From a virus: DNA of 25,233 nucleotides. Below the pieces are notes generated by a model that was given only the letters and a program-made list of their open reading frames with translations, searched no databases and was not told the DNA's origin. Within the stretch, counting starts at the first letter, position 1. Each line of letters opens with the position of its first letter. The stretch lies in the UHGV virus genome UHGV-0079576. One strand, given 5' to 3'. The translations under genes were made by a program, and so were the position numbers. Shown one piece after another: positions 3,859 to 10,604 of the stretch.

Positions 3859-5746
3859 TGCAGCCGGTGCGATAGCCACAGGGCTTTTATCTCTCAATAT
3901 TCCGGTTCCACTGACGACGGTTCAGTGGGCTGATCAACATTATTATCTGCCGAAAGAATCTTCATACACTCCCGGACAATGGGAAACCCTGCCGTTTCAG
4001 GTTGCCATTATGAACAGCATGGGAAATGACCGGATCCGCACCGTTAATCTGATTAAATCGGCGCGCGTTGGTTACACCAAAATGCTGTTGGGGGTGGAGG
4101 CTTATTTTATTGAGCATAAATCCCGTAACAGTCTGCTTTTTCAGCCAACAGATTCTGCGGCAGAAGATTTCATGAAATCTCATGTTGAGCCAACGATCAG
4201 GGATGTCCCTGCATTGCTGGAGCTGGCTCCATGGTTCGGAAGAAAACATCGTGATAATACACTCACCCTGAAGCGTTTTTCCTCCGGTGTGGGTTTCTGG
4301 TGCCTGGGTGGTGCCGCTGCTAAAAACTACCGTGAAAAATCTGTGGATGTGGTCTGCTATGACGAACTCTCCTCGTTTGAACCGGATGTGGAAAAAGAAG
4401 GTTCGCCGACGCTGCTTGGTGATAAACGCATCGAAGGTTCGGTATGGCCTAAATCCATACGCGGCTCAACGCCAAAAATCAAAGGTTCCTGTCAGATTGA
4501 GAAAGCCGCGAATGAATCTGCGCATTTCATGCGGTTTTATGTCCCTTGCCCTCATTGCGGGGAGGCCCAGTATCTGAAGTTTGGCGATGATGCGACGCCG
4601 TCTGGCCTGAAATGGGAGAAGGGTAAACCGGAAACGGTGTATTACCTGTGTGAACATAATGGCTGTGTGATCCGGCAGTCGGAACTTGACCAGACCGACG
4701 GACGCTGGATTTGTGACAATACCGGGATGTGGACGCGTGATGGCCTGACATTTTACAGCGCCGGTGATGAGGAGATGCCGCCACCGCGCTCAATCTCGTA
4801 CCACATCTGGACGGCGTACAGTCCGTTCACCACCTGGGTGCAGATTGTCTACGACTGGCTGGATGCGCTGAAGGATCCAAACGGTGTTAAGACGTTTATT
4901 AACACCACGCTCGGGGAGCCCTATGAAGAGGCCGTGGCAGAAAAACTGAGCTTTGAGTTGTTGCTGGAAAAAGTCTGCCACTATGGCGCGCAGGTTCCCC
5001 TGCGGGTGGTTTACCTGACCGCCGGGATCGACTCCCAGAAAGATCGCTATGAAATTTATGTCTGGGGCTGGGCTCCCGGCGAAGAAGCCTTTCTGATTGA
5101 TAAGCAAATTATCATGGGGCGACCGGAAGACGAGGACACCCTTAAACGTGTTGATACGGTGATCCGGAAAAAATATCGTCATGCTGACGGTACTGAAATT
5201 TCCATTTCCCGTGTCTGCTGGGATACCGGTGGTATCGACCAGGACATTGTGTATCAGCGTTCCAGGAAACACGGCACTTTTTTTGTGCTTCCCATAAAAG
5301 GGGCATCGGTGTACGGCAAGCCGGTGATCACCATGCCCAAAAAGCGCAACCAGCGTGGTGTGTTTTTGTGTGAGGTGGGCTCCGATACCGTCAAGGAAAT
5401 GCTGTACGCCCGTTTTGCCCTGCCGGTGGTTTCTGCCAGTGAAGCCGCCCCGTATACCTTCCGTTTTCCGGATAACCCCGACATTTTTTCGGAAGAAGAG
5501 GCGCGTCAGATCGTGGCGGAAGAGCTGGTGGAGAAGGTGGTTAATGGCAGGGTGAAACTGCTGTGGGATAAAAAAGGGCGACGCAACGAAGCCCTCGACT
5601 GCCTGGTATATGCCTATGCTGCCCTGCGTATTTCAGTTCAGCGGTGGCAGCTGGATCTTGAAGCACTGGCCCGTGCCAGAAGAGATGAGCAGGACGACGA
5701 TGAGATGAGTCTGGAAGAAATCGCGGCTGCACTGAGTGGAGGATAA
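3830..5746 (+). CDS. A: Terminase large subunit (lambda gpA-like)
   Basis: Strong collinear similarity to lambda gpA (…[27 protein letters not shown]…[14 protein letters not shown]…[13 protein letters not shown]…WDTGGID…); start chosen at ATG 3830 (GGTGG upstream) inside the Nu1 3' end; track ORF begins at 3788. Confidence 0.95.
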
Positions 5747-5749
5747 AGA

Positions 5750-5959
5750 ATGGTTTATACGCATGAAATGCTTTGTGATGCCCGCCGGGCATTACATGAA
5801 CTGATGATCGGACGTGCTGTGGTTTCCGTCAGTAAGGACGGGCGTCAGGTTCAGTATTCGCGGGCGACGATTGGTGAACTACGCCAGTATATTGAAGAGC
5901 TGGAAAGTGCGCTGGGCGTATCCGGACGGCGTCGTGGCCCGGCAGGAGTGGGGCTGTGA
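5750..5959 (+). CDS. W: Head-tail joining / head completion protein (lambda gpW-like)
   Basis: 69 aa; ARRALHELMIGRAVVSVSKDGRQVQYSRATIGELRQYIEELE…RRRGPAG parallels lambda W. Confidence 0.85.
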   Translation: MVYTHEMLCDARRALHELMIGRAVVSVSKDGRQVQYSRATIGELRQYIEELESALGVSGRRRGPAGVGL

Positions 5960-7527
5960 ATGGGGAACTGGTGGATCTTCACGGGCAGCCATTGCGGCAG
6001 AGTATGGGATATTCCGGAGGGGGTACCGGATTTGGCGGGCAGCTTGCGGAATGGTTGCCTGCACCGGAAAGTGCCGACGTGGCGCTCTTACCTTCCATTC
6101 AGCTGGGTAACGCCCGTGCGGATGATCTGGTCCGTAACAACGGTATTGCCGCAAATGCAGTGGAAATTCATAAAGACCATATCGTCGGGCACATGTTTCG
6201 CCTGAGCTACCGGCCCAACTGGCGCTGGCTGGGGATGTCGGAAGCTGATTCGCATGCCTTTATTGAAGATGTGGAGGCGGCGTGGATGGAATATTGCGAT
6301 CCTGTGTTTGGTTCGATGGATGTGGAGGGGCGTCGCTCGTTTACCGAATTTATTCGTGAAGGGGTGGGCGTTCATACGTTTAACGGTGAAATTTTTGTCC
6401 AGCCCGTATGGGATACGGAATCCACGTCATTATTCCGGACGAAATTCAAAACCATCAGCCCGAAACGTGTAAGCACACCCGGTTATGGTACCGGCGATCG
6501 TTTTATGCGTGCCGGGGTGGAAATCAACCGGTACGGAAAAGCACTGGCCTACCATGTTCAGGAAGATGACTGGCCCGGTTACGGTGTCAGCAACTGGACG
6601 CGGATTGCGGCGACGCTGCCCTCCGGGCGACCGGGAATGATCCATGTGTTTCAGCCGCAGGAGGACGGGCAGACGCGCGGGGCCAACCAGTTTTATTCTG
6701 TCATGGAGCGTCTCAAGATGCTCGACACACTGCAGGCCACGCAACTGCAGTCGGCGGTGGTGCGGGCGATGTATGCCGCGACGATTGAATCCACGCTGGA
6801 TTCGGAAAAAGCATTTGAATATATCGCCGGGGTGGGAGATGGCGGTAAAAACCCCCTGAACACCATCATGAAAGGCTACGCGCGTTATTACGCCACCAAT
6901 ACGGTAAAGCTGGGCGGGGTCCGTATTCCGCATCTTTATCCGGGGGATTCACTGAATCTGCAGACAGCGCAGAATGCAGATAATGGTTTCTCTGAACTGG
7001 AAAAGGCGCTGTTACGTTACATCGCTGCCGGACTGGGGGTGTCCTATGAACAGCTTTCCCGTGATTATTCACAGGTCAGTTATTCCAGTGCCAGGGCATC
7101 CGCCAATGAGTCGTGGCGGTATTTTATGGGCAAACGAAAATTTGTGGCCAGCCGGCTGGCATCACAGATGTTTGCTTGCTGGCTGGAGGAAGCTCTTATT
7201 CGCGGTGTGATCCGCCCGCCGAAATCCCGTTTTTCATTCTGGGAGGCCCGTTCCGGATGGTGTCGTGCCGAGTGGATTGGTGCCGGTCGCATGGCGATTG
7301 ATGGCCTTAAGGAAGTGCAGGAATCGGTGATGCGTATTGAAGGTGGTTTAAGCACATACGAGAAGGAGTTGGCCCTGATGGGCGATGACTATCAGGAAAT
7401 ATTCCGCCAGCAACTGCGTGAAAGCCAGGAGCGACAGGCAGCGGGTCTTCCCCGCCCCATCTGGATAAAGGACACGTTTCAGCAGCAGATCCGACAGACA
7501 ACGGGAGAAAAAGGTGATGCGTCGTAA
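5956..7527 (+). CDS. B: Portal protein (lambda gpB-like)
   Basis: 523 aa; GTG start overlapping the W stop; position and size as lambda B between W and C. Confidence 0.85.
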   Translation: MNGELVDLHGQPLRQSMGYSGGGTGFGGQLAEWLPAPESADVALLPSIQLGNARADDLVRNNGIAANAVEIHKDHIVGHMFRLSYRPNWRWLGMSEADSHAFIEDVEAAWMEYCDPVFGSMDVEGRRSFTEFIREGVGVHTFNGEIFVQPVWDTESTSLFRTKFKTISPKRVSTPGYGTGDRFMRAGVEINRYGKALAYHVQEDDWPGYGVSNWTRIAATLPSGRPGMIHVFQPQEDGQTRGANQFYSVMERLKMLDTLQATQLQSAVVRAMYAATIESTLDSEKAFEYIAGVGDGGKNPLNTIMKGYARYYATNTVKLGGVRIPHLYPGDSLNLQTAQNADNGFSELEKALLRYIAAGLGVSYEQLSRDYSQVSYSSARASANESWRYFMGKRKFVASRLASQMFACWLEEALIRGVIRPPKSRFSFWEARSGWCRAEWIGAGRMAIDGLKEVQESVMRIEGGLSTYEKELALMGDDYQEIFRQQLRESQERQAAGLPRPIWIKDTFQQQIRQTTGEKGDAS

Positions 7528-9133
7528 TTTATCGCATATTGCCGCCATGGCATTTAATGAGCCGCTTTTACTGGAACCCGCCTATGCGCGGGTTTTCTTT
7601 TGCGCGCTGGGTAAAGAGATGGGGGCCGGCAGCCTTGCCGTTCCTCAGCAGGCTGTTCAGCTTGATGCTGATGGTATGCAACTGGCGGTGACTGACTATA
7701 TGGCGGGCGGTCAGCGTCCGGCAAAGAGTTACCAGGTGAAGAATGGCATCGCCATTCTGCCGGTGAGCGGCACGCTGGTGCATAAACTGGGTACCCTGCG
7801 GCCTTACTCCGGCATGACTGGCTATGACGGCCTGACGGCCCGCCTTCAGATGGCGGTGAATGATCCGGATGTGCGCGGCATTTTGCTGGATATCGACAGC
7901 CCGGGCGGTCAGGCTGCCGGGGCGTTTGACTGTGCTGACATGATTTACCGCCTGCGGGAACAGAAGCCCGTGTGGGCGCTGTGTAATGACATGGCCTGTT
8001 CAGCCGCCATGTTGCTGGCGGCAGCCTGTACGCGTCGGCTGGTCACGCAGACGGCAAAAATTGGTTCGATTGGTGTGATGATGGCGCACACCAGTTACGA
8101 GAAACAACTGGCACAGGAAGGGGTGGATATCACGCTGATTTACGCCGGGCAGCACAAGGTTGACGGCAACAGTATTCAGGCATTGCCGGCAGGTGTGCGT
8201 GCAGATTTTCAGCGCCGTATTGATGAGGCCCGCCGGATGTTTGTCGACAAAGTGGCGCTTTATACGGGGCTGAGTTCAGAGGCGGTGATGAATACCGAGG
8301 CTGCCGTTTATGACGGTCAGGCAGGCATTGATGCAGGCCTGGCTGATCAACTGATTAATGCTGCAGATGCCGTTGAAGTGATGGTTTCTGCACTGAATGA
8401 CTCTGTTACGAAGGAGAATGCAATGACTGTTAAAAATCTCACCGTTGCTGAAGCGGTGGCCCAGGAAAATCAGCGCGTGATGGGGATCCTGAATTGTCAG
8501 GAGGCGAAAGGGCGCGAGCAACTGGCGCAAATGCTGGCAGGTCAACCTGGAATGACGGTTGAGCAGGCGAAAACGTTGCTGGCTGCTGCGCCGGTTGCCG
8601 GTACTGACAGCACGGGTGATCAGATTATGACGCTGCCGGAAGCAAAGGGGCGTGAGCAACTGGCGCAGATGCTGGCAGGTCAACCGGGGATGACGGTGGC
8701 GCAGGCGAAAGCGTTTCTGGCGGCAGCCCCTGCAGCCGGTGCTGCAGGCACAGGCGATCAGATTATGGCGTTACCAGAAGCAAAAGGGCGTGAACAACTC
8801 GCGCAGGCGCTGGCTGAACAGCCGGGAATGACCGTTGACCAGGCCAAAACGTTACTGGCGGCGGCACCGGTTGCGGGTTCTGCAAGTGTCGGCGAGCAGA
8901 TTATGGCGCTGCCGGAGGCGAAAGGGCGCGAACAACTTGCACAGGCACTGACAGAACAGCCAGGAATGACGGTGGCGCAGGCGAAAACGCTGCTGGCAGC
9001 CGCGCCGGCGGCATCGCAACCGTCACAGGAAACACTTTTTGATCGCTTTATGGCACAGCATGCTGCCAGTGCGGTTTCCGGTGGCGGAACGGCCGGGCGC
9101 GGGGAGGAAGACCTGCTGATGAGTATGCCGTAA
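7517..9133 (+). CDS. C: Prohead protease / minor capsid protein C (S49 peptidase family) with a C-terminal repeat-containing scaffold-like domain
   Basis: ATG at 7517 (GTG at 7514); N-terminal two-thirds is ClpP/S49-like; C-terminal third carries four 46-aa repeats; position as lambda C. Confidence 0.8.
   Translation: MRRNLSHIAAMAFNEPLLLEPAYARVFFCALGKEMGAGSLAVPQQAVQLDADGMQLAVTDYMAGGQRPAKSYQVKNGIAILPVSGTLVHKLGTLRPYSGMTGYDGLTARLQMAVNDPDVRGILLDIDSPGGQAAGAFDCADMIYRLREQKPVWALCNDMACSAAMLLAAACTRRLVTQTAKIGSIGVMMAHTSYEKQLAQEGVDITLIYAGQHKVDGNSIQALPAGVRADFQRRIDEARRMFVDKVALYTGLSSEAVMNTEAAVYDGQAGIDAGLADQLINAADAVEVMVSALNDSVTKENAMTVKNLTVAEAVAQENQRVMGILNCQEAKGREQLAQMLAGQPGMTVEQAKTLLAAAPVAGTDSTGDQIMTLPEAKGREQLAQMLAGQPGMTVAQAKAFLAAAPAAGAAGTGDQIMALPEAKGREQLAQALAEQPGMTVDQAKTLLAAAPVAGSASVGEQIMALPEAKGREQLAQALTEQPGMTVAQAKTLLAAAPAASQPSQETLFDRFMAQHAASAVSGGGTAGRGEEDLLMSMP
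8423..9133 (+). CDS. Nested in-frame scaffold protein (lambda Nu3-like) initiated inside the C gene
   Basis: In-frame ATG at 8423 preceded by AAGGAG (8411-8416); would give a 236-aa product covering the repeat array; analogous to the lambda C/Nu3 in-frame overlap. Confidence 0.4.
   Translation: MTVKNLTVAEAVAQENQRVMGILNCQEAKGREQLAQMLAGQPGMTVEQAKTLLAAAPVAGTDSTGDQIMTLPEAKGREQLAQMLAGQPGMTVAQAKAFLAAAPAAGAAGTGDQIMALPEAKGREQLAQALAEQPGMTVDQAKTLLAAAPVAGSASVGEQIMALPEAKGREQLAQALTEQPGMTVAQAKTLLAAAPAASQPSQETLFDRFMAQHAASAVSGGGTAGRGEEDLLMSMP
8501..9010 (+). repeat. In-frame tandem repeat array, about 3.7 copies of 138 bp (46 aa: EAKGREQLAQ(M/A)LA(G/E)QPGMTV.QAK..LAAAP.AG…QIM.LP)
   Basis: Units begin at 8501, 8639, 8777 and 8915 with high nucleotide identity. 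Confidence 0.85.
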
Positions 9134-9171
9134 GCGATATCCGGAATTCAGATAAATCAGGAGACTAAAAA

Positions 9172-9507
9172 ATGATTAAAACCACCACGGAAAAGCGTGC
9201 GGATGTGTACATTTTTGCCGGAAACGATCCGGCGCATACCGCAAAAGCCACCAGTGGTATCAGTGTCGCCATGCCTGCACTGACGCCACTGATGCTGGAT
9301 GACGCCACCGGTAAACTGGTGGCATGGGATGGTCAGAAAGCCGGAACGGCAGTGGGCGTGCTGGCTCTGGCACTTACCGGAACAGAACCCACGCTGACGT
9401 ACTACAAAAGCGGTACGTTTGCCACTGAGTCGCTGGTCTGGCCTGACTCAGTGGATGCGGTGAAAAAAGCCAACGCATTTGTGGGAAGTGCCATCAGCCA
9501 CGCCTGA
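9172..9507 (+). CDS. D: Head decoration protein (lambda gpD-like)
   Basis: 111 aa; …DPAHTAKATSGISVAMPALTPLMLDDATGKLVAWDG…YYKSGTF… parallels lambda D; AGGAG upstream. Confidence 0.9.
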   Translation: MIKTTTEKRADVYIFAGNDPAHTAKATSGISVAMPALTPLMLDDATGKLVAWDGQKAGTAVGVLALALTGTEPTLTYYKSGTFATESLVWPDSVDAVKKANAFVGSAISHA

Positions 9508-9529
9508 TGGTGAAGTGATTAACTGAAAA

Positions 9530-9558
9530 ACGGGTCGCGATGCGGCCCGTTTGTGTTT
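9530..9558 (+). terminator. Putative attenuating intrinsic terminator between decoration and major capsid genes
   Basis: Stem acgggtcgc(9530-9538)/gcggcccgt(9542-9550) followed by ttgtgttt. Confidence 0.4.
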
Positions 9559-9575
9559 CTGAAGGAAAATAAATT

Positions 9576-10604
9576 ATGGGGTTATTTACCACGCGTCAGT
9601 TACTCGGGTACACCGAGCAGAAAGTGAAGTTTCGTGCGCTGTTTCTGGAGCTGTTCTTTCGTCGCACGATCACTTTCCATACTCAGGAAGTCATGCTGGA
9701 TAAAATTACCGGCAAAACACCGGTTGCGGCGTATGTGTCTCCGGTGGTGTCAGGCAAAGTGCTGCGCAGCCGTGGTGGTGAAACCCGTGTGTTATGTCCC
9801 GGTTATGTAAAACCAAAACACCGCTTTGATTATCAGCAGGCAGTGGAACGTCTTCCGGGAGAAGATCCGGCCCGCCTTAATGACCCGGCTTACCGCCGTC
9901 TGCGTATTCTGACGGACAACCTGAAACAGGAAGAGCAGGCGATTGTGCAGGTGGAAGAAATGCAGGCGGTCAGTGCCGTGTTGCAGGGTAAATACACCAT
10001 GAGCGGCGAGCAGTTTGAGACGGTGGAAGTGGATTTTGGGCGTTCTGTCGCCAATAACATTACGCAGGCTGGCGGACGCGAATGGTCGCAGCAGAATGCT
10101 GACACCTTCGATCCGACGCATGATCTGGATGCGTACTGCGATTTTGCTTCCGGCACCATCAATATCGCGATTATGGACGGCACGGTCTGGCGTATGCTGA
10201 ACGGTTTTAAACTGTTCCGTGAAAAACTGGATACACGCCGTGGCTCCAAATCTGAGCTGGAAACGGCACTGAAAGATCTGGGTTCCGTGGTTTCCTTTAA
10301 GGGCTGGTACGGCGATCTGGCTGTCGTGGTGGCGAAGACAACGTATGTTGACGAAAACGGGGATGAACAGCGTTATCTGCCTGAAGGTACACTGATTCTG
10401 GGAAATACCCAGGCGGAAGGCGTCCGTTGCTATGGTGCCATTCAGGATAATCAGGCGCTGAGTGAAGGGATCACCTCTGCTATTCGTTATCCGAAACACT
10501 GGGAGGAAGTGGGTGATCCTGGTTGTGAATATACCATGACGCAGTCTGCACCTTTGATGGTGCTGCCGGATCCGGATGCGTTTGTGGTGGTTCAGGTGAA
10601 ATAA
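9576..10604 (+). CDS. E: Major capsid protein (lambda gpE-like)
   Basis: 342 aa; collinear with lambda E (…VSPVVSGKVLRSRGGE…PGYVKPKH…DPAYRR…QVEEMQAVSAVLQGKYTMSGE…TRRGSKSELETALKDLG…TMTQSAPLMVLPDPDAFVVVQ). Confidence 0.95.
   Translation: MGLFTTRQLLGYTEQKVKFRALFLELFFRRTITFHTQEVMLDKITGKTPVAAYVSPVVSGKVLRSRGGETRVLCPGYVKPKHRFDYQQAVERLPGEDPARLNDPAYRRLRILTDNLKQEEQAIVQVEEMQAVSAVLQGKYTMSGEQFETVEVDFGRSVANNITQAGGREWSQQNADTFDPTHDLDAYCDFASGTINIAIMDGTVWRMLNGFKLFREKLDTRRGSKSELETALKDLGSVVSFKGWYGDLAVVVAKTTYVDENGDEQRYLPEGTLILGNTQAEGVRCYGAIQDNQALSEGITSAIRYPKHWEEVGDPGCEYTMTQSAPLMVLPDPDAFVVVQVK

Follow-up and report, generated by a model that had tools for sequence, protein, structure and literature searches.

Tandem repeats inside a head gene pose the question of what they are kept for, and this question is raised by a gene for a head maturation protease and scaffold situated at 7514-9133 (+ strand) of the window, as we will call the whole stretch of 25,233 nucleotides analyzed. 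Since its frame also contains an ATG preceded by a Shine-Dalgarno (SD) sequence, it has to be asked whether a second protein starts within the same gene. The observations are best explained as a whole by a C/Nu3-type gene with two products and a four-module array whose modules bind a partner in the procapsid, an explanation that we consider probable.

The gene and the layout of its repeats

The gpC-like gene encodes 539 amino acids (start GTG 7514 or ATG 7517 in the list of open reading frames), and its 5' end overlaps the end of the portal gene. An S49 (SppA-like) peptidase domain was found by Pfam (Peptidase_S49, PF01343, E = 1.3e-33, 116.5 bits vs a cut-off of 24.9), its best stretch covering residues 147-291 (7952-8386, + strand); residues 78-290 match SppA in the PDB sequence search (3rst_A, E = 3.8e-16), the whole frame matches PHROG 53 “head maturation protease” (2e-218), and in the alignment phage 21 and lambda both keep the serine S163 (…CSA…). 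The upstream neighbor is a lambda-family portal gene (Phage_portal_2, 1.9e-95, 5956-7527), and downstream lie a gpD-like decoration gene (HDPD, 8.7e-22, 9172-9507) and a gpE-like capsid gene (Phage_cap_E, 2.7e-64, 9576-10604). This combination of domain and neighbors bears out the original prediction of a gpC-like gene of the lambda C/Nu3 type; the protein has 68% identity with gp5 of phage 21 and 58% with gpC of lambda, and the locus is the head gene, of C/Nu3 type, of an E. coli prophage that is lambdoid and phage-21-like.

The arrangement is a variant of a long-known one, and no new system. Phage 21 genes 5/6 (GenBank M81255; complete genome OL657228) have the same order of portal, protease/scaffold, decoration and capsid, with about 74% nucleotide identity to the gene described here, and lambda C/Nu3 (J02459) likewise joins an S49 protease to a C-terminal scaffold region, with in-frame internal initiation of the scaffold. 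Near-identical E. coli genes are annotated in RefSeq as “S49 family peptidase,” a label that leaves out the putative nested scaffold product. E. coli strain M8 carries a prophage of this type with 99.6% identity.

The predicted in-frame array of 138-bp (46-aa) units was confirmed in the C-terminal third of the gene: Tandem Repeats Finder reported 3.7 copies at 8500-9008 (period 138, 78% matches, 1% indels, score 543), and a second repeat search gave three 236-nt copies spaced 138/138, with identities of 79% and 77%. All features of the array lie on the + strand. A short lead-in helix (QRVMGILNC, 8471-8497) is, according to the alignments, the counterpart of the “DQIMAL” segment found before each later unit, and positions 2-8 of the profile, in this region, are conserved across the family. 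Unit 1 (8498-8635) comprises 46 aa, that is, a 32-aa core (QEAKGREQLAQMLAGQPGMTVEQAKTLLAAAP) followed by a 14-aa linker and short helix; it is followed by units 2 (8636-8773) and 3 (8774-8911), and by unit 4 (8912-9007), which consists of the core only and ends the repeat. The four unit HMM matches in the 539-aa protein (residues 329-359, 375-405, 421-451 and 467-497, respectively) score 60.8-65.5 bits. After the last unit comes a non-repeated C-terminal tail (…ETLFDRFMAQH…EEDLLMSMP, 9008-9130, from the alignments), modeled with helices of low confidence (model residues 49-57 and 73-76); its counterpart is …MFEHFMANH…KMLMAMP in phage 21 and, in part, …ALDRLM…NDLLNTPV in lambda, and the clade of the present gene differs from phage 21 in having an ending of its own, …LLMSMP.

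The repeats themselves are already known as a feature. Phage 21 carries the same in-frame repeats of about 140 bp, with the same motif, annotated as “Tri1/Tri/Tri3 box” with unknown function (M81255); these boxes (2448-2551, 2588-2698 and 2729-2842 of that locus) coincide with motif units at 2450, 2600 and 2741. Phage 21 has three units with a core nucleotide identity of 58-66%, vs four units with 76-83% in the present gene. A literature search for “Tri box” returned nothing relevant.

The core module and its candidate partner

Each unit contains the motif I-L-x-L-P-E-A-K-G-R-E-x-L-A-x-x-L-A-x-x-P-G-M-T-V-x-x-A-K-x-L-L-A-A-A-P, which is the conserved core motif of the scaffold region in lambda Nu3/gpC; lambda shares it (ENSRIMGILNCEEAHGREEQARVLAETPGMTVKTARRILAAAP) as a single copy, in front of which lies a stretch of low complexity, about 50 residues long, with no counterpart here. 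A search of 1.84 billion representatives with the unit profile returned 412 proteins. Among the best matches, 55 of the 58 long proteins are single-copy, their motif ending 44 residues (median) before the C-terminus. In the protein described here, a looser form (…I-L-x-[LC]-x-E-A-K-G-R-E-x-L-A-x-x-L-A…P-G-M-[TS]-V-x-x-A-[KR]-x-x-L-A-A-A-P) is present near the C-terminus. Across Proteobacteria, no other part of the entire Nu3/gpC scaffold region is as conserved as the 32-residue core. As a side observation, the motif also occurs in a stand-alone Bradyrhizobium protein, whose neighborhood is an integrase-linked element lacking any S49 gene; the adjoining 296-aa protein has no family match.

In the AlphaFold models, the array is predicted as beads on a string, with helical modules (pLDDT ~75-83) joined by low-confidence linkers (pTM 0.28), and each module would consist of a short helix, a helix-loop-helix of about 32 residues and a linker of about 14 residues. 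A PDB sequence search with the scaffold part gave chance-level matches only (bL12, E = 0.075; SelB, 0.91), and comparison of the module with solved scaffold domains showed no significant sequence or fold match. A helix-hairpin-helix (HhH) or DNA-binding reading, prompted by the segment “PGMTVxQAKxLL” and by weak matches to T2SSK, Bac_DNA_binding and RuvA, was also considered and rejected; HhH Pfam families do not match the scaffold, the predicted 236-aa scaffold protein is acidic (pI 4.8, net charge -7.4), and the T2SSK score (PF03934, 28.7 bits) is a sum over repeats in which all single stretches fall below the threshold.

By analogy with better-known scaffolds, we infer that the module binds another component of the procapsid, the likeliest being the major capsid protein (gpE-like), each copy acting as an independent binding unit. 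[quoted passage not shown] A small helix-loop-helix close to the C-terminal end of an acidic scaffold that is otherwise extended or disordered is a trait of P22-type scaffolds and is predicted here as well, and the direction of T=7 HK97-fold capsid assembly (PMC11565965) would be a common role. The P22-type coat-binding domain is without detectable sequence or fold similarity to the module, and the analogy thus rests on position and predicted secondary structure. In contrast to the P22-type domain, the module occurs in tandem copies, one of the two predicted products joins it to a protease, and an additional tail comes after it.

The strongest alternative is that the modules serve self-association of the scaffold, or attach it to the portal or to the protease domain, and that the tail is the capsid-binding element. 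Besides its interactions with C and B, lambda Nu3 self-associates (compilation, PMC3224144); the module is not situated at the extreme C-terminus, where the capsid-binding element of other phages is usually located (PMC11565965), and in enterobacterial clades the last module is followed by a tail (FxxFM…DLLxxP) that is separate from it and conserved. Nonetheless, in distant homologues, alpha-proteobacterial and others, the module is conserved and the tail is not, which indicates that the module, rather than the tail, tracks the family-wide function, and the AlphaFold models, at their pTM of 0.28, contain no packing between modules. We therefore regard this alternative as unlikely.

If the modules do bind the capsid protein, it is possible, as a tentative extension, that a chain with 2-5 independent modules on flexible linkers bridges several capsid subunits. 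Tandem copies would then give a multivalent scaffold and a multivalent protease, with partial redundancy between units, and multivalence would replace the oligomerization used by single-module scaffolds such as lambda Nu3.

The probable nested start at 8423

The in-frame ATG at 8423 is present as predicted, 6 nt after an SD sequence AAGGAG (8411-8416, + strand), and opens a nested frame of 236 aa (8423-9133, + strand; 24.0 kDa), a putative Nu3-like scaffold that would begin at Met-304 with (M)TVKNLTVAE. Its SD:anti-SD pairing energy (-8.8 kcal/mol) is the strongest among the 48 in-frame internal start codons, and exceeds those of the gpC-like gene's own start (-7.4), the gpD-like gene (-7.4) and the gpE-like gene (-5.7 kcal/mol). 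The start aligns with the annotated start of phage 21 gene 6, a nested scaffold gene with an internal ribosome-binding site and ATG at the same position, of which it is the positional homologue; the Nu3-like reading of the original prediction is thereby supported at the level of sequence. In lambda, where in-frame overlap of C and Nu3 has been described (Shaw and Murialdo, 1980, cited in PMC8508860), the homologue is an AGGAGG-ATG at 5342, whereas GenBank places the Nu3 start at 5132, and a nested “head scaffolding protein” is annotated in N15.

It could be argued that the internal ATG is unused, that only the full-length protease-scaffold fusion is made, and that coding alone accounts for the SD-like sequence. 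Single-gene fusions of this kind without a separate scaffold are known in P2, as cited in PMC8508860; as far as that description goes, P2 gpO likewise combines, within one gene, a protease at the N-terminus with a scaffold domain at the C-terminus, and is set apart by its single product and by having no tandem motif array. Against this stand the annotated nested genes of lambda, phage 21 and N15, the rank of the SD at 8411-8416 as the strongest of the gene, and its conservation: an SD motif (AGGAG/GGAGG/AAGAGG), 5-8 nt upstream, and the invariant in-frame ATG are kept in 82/82 phage-21-like loci, through five different amino-acid contexts at the SD (KEN, QEN, QED, GGT, KED). An unused ATG is thus very unlikely, and the start at 8423 is probably used to make a separate scaffold product.

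With both starts in use, the full-length product, of 58 kDa, would be an S49 serine protease with a C-terminal scaffold region, and ribosomes starting at 8423 would produce just the last 236 residues, which would form the abundant scaffold protein. Since the scaffold region is common to both products, the protease would enter the growing procapsid along with the scaffold.

Divergence, copy number and significance of the units

The units had been described as near-identical, which does not hold at the DNA level. Over the full 138 nt, units 1-3 are 76-80% identical to each other and 61-63% to unit 4; the 96-nt cores are 76-83% identical, and the longest in-register exact runs between units reach only 8-21 nt. 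The protein cores are 84-94% identical. Among units, identity is 93, 92 and 52% at the first, second and third codon positions, and 28/32 first, 28/32 second and 8/32 third core positions are invariant; for the 32-residue core, dN is 0.04-0.10 vs a pS of 0.45-0.69, with dN/dS of about 0.03-0.15. The fall to 52% at third positions identifies the units as old duplicates kept by protein selection: in the repeat array, selection acts on the protein and not on the DNA.

The number of units among relatives, counted in IMG/VR loci and complete genomes, ranges from 1 to 5, complete E. coli chromosomes included: the module is present once in lambda, twice in loci L017 and L018, three times in the phage-21 types and PapRG-04-4, four times in the type of gene studied here, and five times in L014 and STEC313. 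The examples with 2, 4 and 5 copies all come from prophages, and the 4-copy type was found in no deposited phage genome. In an even sample of 60 E. coli genomes with this gene type, about 55 have the 4-copy form in a colinear arrangement. Capsid proteins are 97-99% identical across 2-, 3-, 4- and 5-copy prophages, and copy number is thus labile in evolution. L014, three of whose units are 100% identical, has flanks (2.5 kb) at least 99.9% identical to those of L017, the difference between the two being exactly three units, although the 2 copies in L017 could have arisen during genome assembly, by collapse of an array like that of L014. The expectation that repeat number changes is in this way borne out among relatives; the proposed recombination between near-identical units is not for this array, as its diverged units make a poor recombination substrate. 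Unequal recombination in the phage-21-like clade may have multiplied the module, which is single in lambda and most relatives; in the present array, synonymous divergence of the units would stabilize copy number.

These data also bear on the suggestion that the repeats are a flexible Ala/Gln-rich spacer, with the setting of scaffold length as their sole role. The composition (Ala 21.6%, Gln 10.6%, Gly 9.7%) and the low model confidence in the linkers between cores agree with it, as does the occurrence of 2 to 5 copies beside nearly identical capsid proteins, which implies that changes in scaffold length are tolerated. In the same sense, a 2011 paper by Medina et al. reportedly calls lambda Nu3 intrinsically disordered in its title. 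The core does not behave as a spacer: it is under the strong purifying selection described above, is predicted to be helical (pLDDT ~80), and is conserved family-wide, with ten positions (E9, A10, G12, R13, A17, L20, A21, A31, L35, P39) 93-99% conserved over 157 motif instances from diverse bacteria. The retention of a sequence motif argues against a pure spacer, a reading that we find highly improbable; the spacer-like character looks limited to the linker of about 14 Ala/Gly/Ser/Thr residues between cores. A role of the repeats as DNA or RNA, the Tri boxes being cis sites for protein binding or regulatory RNA and the protein repeat incidental, has a negligible probability and was rejected, CII sites included, on the codon-position statistics together with the lack of any TTGYN6TTGY match in the 25,233-nt window, even though the phage 21 record lists the boxes as repeat_region features of unknown function and a later annotation of that phage has two CII-site pattern matches in the same area; nor did a promoter/terminator scan of 7400-9700 give anything above shuffles.

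The preferred reading, with conserved modules that probably bind a procapsid partner, leaves the accepted picture of lambdoid head assembly unchanged, and its significance is modest. It identifies the unexplained Tri boxes of phage 21 as tandem copies of a single conserved core module of the lambda gpC/Nu3 family, and the conserved internal start bears on which ATG is the true start of lambda Nu3. Furthermore, the occurrence of 1-5 copies beside an almost constant capsid protein offers a natural series for questions on the partner and the valency of the module; if multivalence proves true, the 2-, 3-, 4- and 5-copy variants would be a test series relating valency to how faithfully, and with what kinetics, T=7 capsids assemble.

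Gene identity and the predicted internal start

The 539-codon ORF at 7514-9133 (+) is a C/Nu3-type gene of a lambdoid prophage. This identity is established here by a Peptidase_S49 domain at residues 147-291 of the 539-aa product (1.3e-33), the neighbouring lambda-family portal (1.9e-95), lambda gpD-type decoration protein (8.7e-22) and gpE-type major capsid protein (2.7e-64) (all Pfam), a match to PHROG 53 “head maturation protease” (2e-218), and similarity to phage 21, the nearest deposited phage (~74% of nucleotides identical across the first 64% of the gene), and then to lambda (~70%). A solved SppA resembles the protease part (3.8e-16), and the C-terminal 236 residues match the PHROGs “head scaffolding protein” and “capsid assembly protein”. 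In E. coli chromosomes the gene occurs in nearly identical form (up to 99.6%), where its sole annotation is “S49 family peptidase”. Separately, an 11-bp G+C-rich hairpin (AAACGGGTCGCGATGCGGCCCGTTT) with GTGTTTCTGA after it lies at 9528-9552 (+), in the short space that separates the gpD-like gene from the gpE-like one; it may act as a partial terminator or affect mRNA stability within the late operon. The CII-site pattern TTGYN6TTGY has no match on either strand of the 25.2 kb (shuffles expect 5.6 ± 2.4).

The nested C/Nu3 arrangement is established (Shaw and Murialdo, 1980, as cited in PMC8508860); it is annotated likewise in N15, and gene 6 of phage 21, the Nu3 homologue, is nested in gene 5 (GenBank M81255). 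Here, the in-frame ATG at 8423, 6 nt downstream of AAGGAG (8411-8416), opens a nested frame of 236 codons. In both phage 21 records gene 6 has its own ribosome-binding site (GGAGG), and its ATG aligns with 8423. Across 82 IMG/VR and reference loci of phage-21-like clades, AGGAG, GGAGG or AAGAGG stands 5-8 nt 5' of an invariant in-frame ATG, so that the original prediction's ribosome-binding context is conserved in relatives; the codons of the motif encode varying residues (KEN, QEN, QED, GGT, KED), a pattern that selection on a ribosome-binding site, not on the protein, would produce. Anti-SD pairing at 8423 (-8.8 kcal/mol) is the strongest among the 48 in-frame internal start codons, and stronger than at the gene's own start and at the decoration- and capsid-gene starts of the window. 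Together, the gene 6 homology, the conserved SD-ATG and the strength of the pairing support the predicted Nu3-like start, which would be used in this prophage. In lambda (J02459, locus L003; 5328-5344) tctcAGGAGGgcgaATG stands at the corresponding site; its ATG at 5342, the positional homologue of the phage 21 gene 6 start and of 8423, is in frame 4 nt after a perfect AGGAGG, and its product would have 131 residues (13,394 Da). The GenBank Nu3 CDS starts at 5132 (201 aa) with a poor SD upstream; from sequence comparison, this database start may lie too far upstream.

The repeat array: divergence, selection and copy number

In the window, Tandem Repeats Finder returned a single strong array (8500-9008; 3.7 copies with period 138, matches 78%, indels 1%, score 543), a second repeat search gave three copies of 236 nt at intervals of exactly 138 nt (identity 79 and 77%), and the ORF contains the array in frame, its translation showing four units of 46 residues that begin at 8498, 8636, 8774 and 8912. 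The array itself is thus borne out, although the units, predicted to be near-identical, share only 76-80% of nucleotides among units 1-3 over 138 nt, 61-63% with unit 4, and 76-83% in the 96-nt cores, the longest exact runs in register being 8-21 nt.

Identity between the four cores is 93, 92 and 52% at first, second and third codon positions (invariant columns 28/32, 28/32 and 8/32), with pS (fraction of synonymous sites differing) of 0.45-0.69 and dN of 0.04-0.10; in the protease part, for comparison, the window and its relative L009 agree at 85% of third positions. Across these two lineages units mostly group by position (u4/u4 85%, u1/u1 84%, window u3 with L009 u2/u3 89-90%), with possible local conversion or duplication (window u1/u2 83%, L009 u2/u3 92%). 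Constraint at the protein level is shown by these data, according to which selection acts on the protein and the duplications are old. The codon-position pattern, the pS and dN values and the unit grouping count against a mere flexible spacer, as had been proposed, and exclude a cis element acting as DNA or RNA.

Copy number, counted with a core-motif HMM in 83 loci and the window, is labile, in agreement with the variability foreseen: one copy in lambda, two in L017 and L018, three in 67 phage-21-type loci, four in 13 window-type sequences (the window and 12 loci) and five in L014. The three internal units of L014 are 100% identical, and it differs from L017 by exactly three units, the 2.5-kb flanks on both sides being at least 99.9% identical; the two copies of L017 may result from a collapsed assembly. 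The range is confirmed in complete chromosomes, with five units in STEC313 (NZ_CP041433.1, 584-aa gene, three units 91-96% identical) and three in PapRG-04-4 (NZ_CP049201.1, 492-aa gene). In an even sample of 60 E. coli genomes with this gene type, about 55 match the 754-nt query colinearly (85-99.7% identity): the four-copy form is the usual one in E. coli, and it was absent from the deposited phage genomes searched. Over 240 residues, two-, three-, four- and five-copy prophages share 97-99% of their capsid-protein sequence, so a change in copy number does not go with another capsid protein.

Two further variants were observed. In H100-H105 (E. coli 08-00022 and OkiPb strains), 676 nt match 685 nt of the query (window 8449-9133), which suggests that this sub-lineage has lost 9 nt, in frame, from the array or its linkers. 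P0054, P0055, P0057, P0058, P0060 and P0078, phage-21-type scaffold ORFs from several independent protein clusters, share an out-of-frame tail (…RRRLNSWLPARE) after unit 1 or 2; frameshifted scaffold genes therefore recur in databases, probably from defective prophages or sequencing errors in the repeat.

The core module in the family and its proposed role

The arrangement belongs, with four copies, to a type already known from lambda C/Nu3 and the phage 21 Tri boxes: phage 21 gene 6 carries repeat_regions “Tri1 box”, “Tri box” and “Tri3 box” (M81255, each “function unknown; putative”), whose coordinates coincide with its three motif units. In a three-way protein alignment the motif is single in lambda gpC (ENSRIMGILNCEEAHGREEQARVLAETPGMTVKTARRILAAAP), whereas phage 21 has three copies and the window four. 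The array is shown to be a multiplication of the family's core module.

AlphaFold2 modelled the 236-aa product (20 sequences; mean pLDDT 66.8, pTM 0.28) with a short helix, a one-turn helix and a helix-loop-helix per unit (pLDDT ~75-83) and low-confidence linkers; a second model, of the last unit and tail (26 sequences), gave the same module (pLDDT ~80) and a weakly predicted tail. A relationship to tandem HhH proteins or Pfam T2SSK, suggested by weak matches, was rejected: the product is acidic (pI 4.8, net charge -7.4), and the whole-protein T2SSK score (PF03934, window 8423-9130; 28.7 bits, cut-off 24.2) arises only because weak matches are summed over four repeats, no single stretch passing. 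Automatic annotation could thus give multi-copy scaffolds a wrong T2SSK label.

Searched against 1.84 billion representative proteins, the four-unit profile matched 412 at E ≤ 0.001. The best 150 include 58 long proteins (≥380 aa, the size of a protease-scaffold); 55 of these carry a single copy, which ends a median of 44 residues short of the C-terminus; some shorter matches are stand-alone or internally called scaffold ORFs. E9, A10, G12, R13, A17, L20, A21, A31, L35 and P39 are 93-99% conserved (157 instances), and distant homologues keep the module and not the tail after it. On this evidence, tandem multiplication is peculiar to the enterobacterial phage-21-like clade. Also observed was a Bradyrhizobium locus (L084 5001-5600; GCA_023073215.1, JADPJC010000168.1), where a 199-aa stand-alone protein with the Nu3 core motif lies within an element with integrase, HTH_17 and DUF6074, followed by a 296-aa protein without family match and a PhageMin_Tail protein. 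No S49 protease was found within 5 kb; the element is perhaps a small prophage, or a satellite, that encodes a scaffold-like protein of its own.

Each module would act as a separate binding unit whose most likely partner is the capsid protein, a reading that fits the Nu3-E, Nu3-C and Nu3-Nu3 interactions reported in lambda (PMC3224144). As the main rival, the modules would serve self-association or portal or protease docking, the conserved tail being the capsid-protein binder. The array would be common to the full-length protease and to the scaffold made from the internal start, so that both would enter the procapsid through shared contacts. That 2-5 copies are tolerated alongside one and the same capsid protein suggests partial redundancy among the modules.
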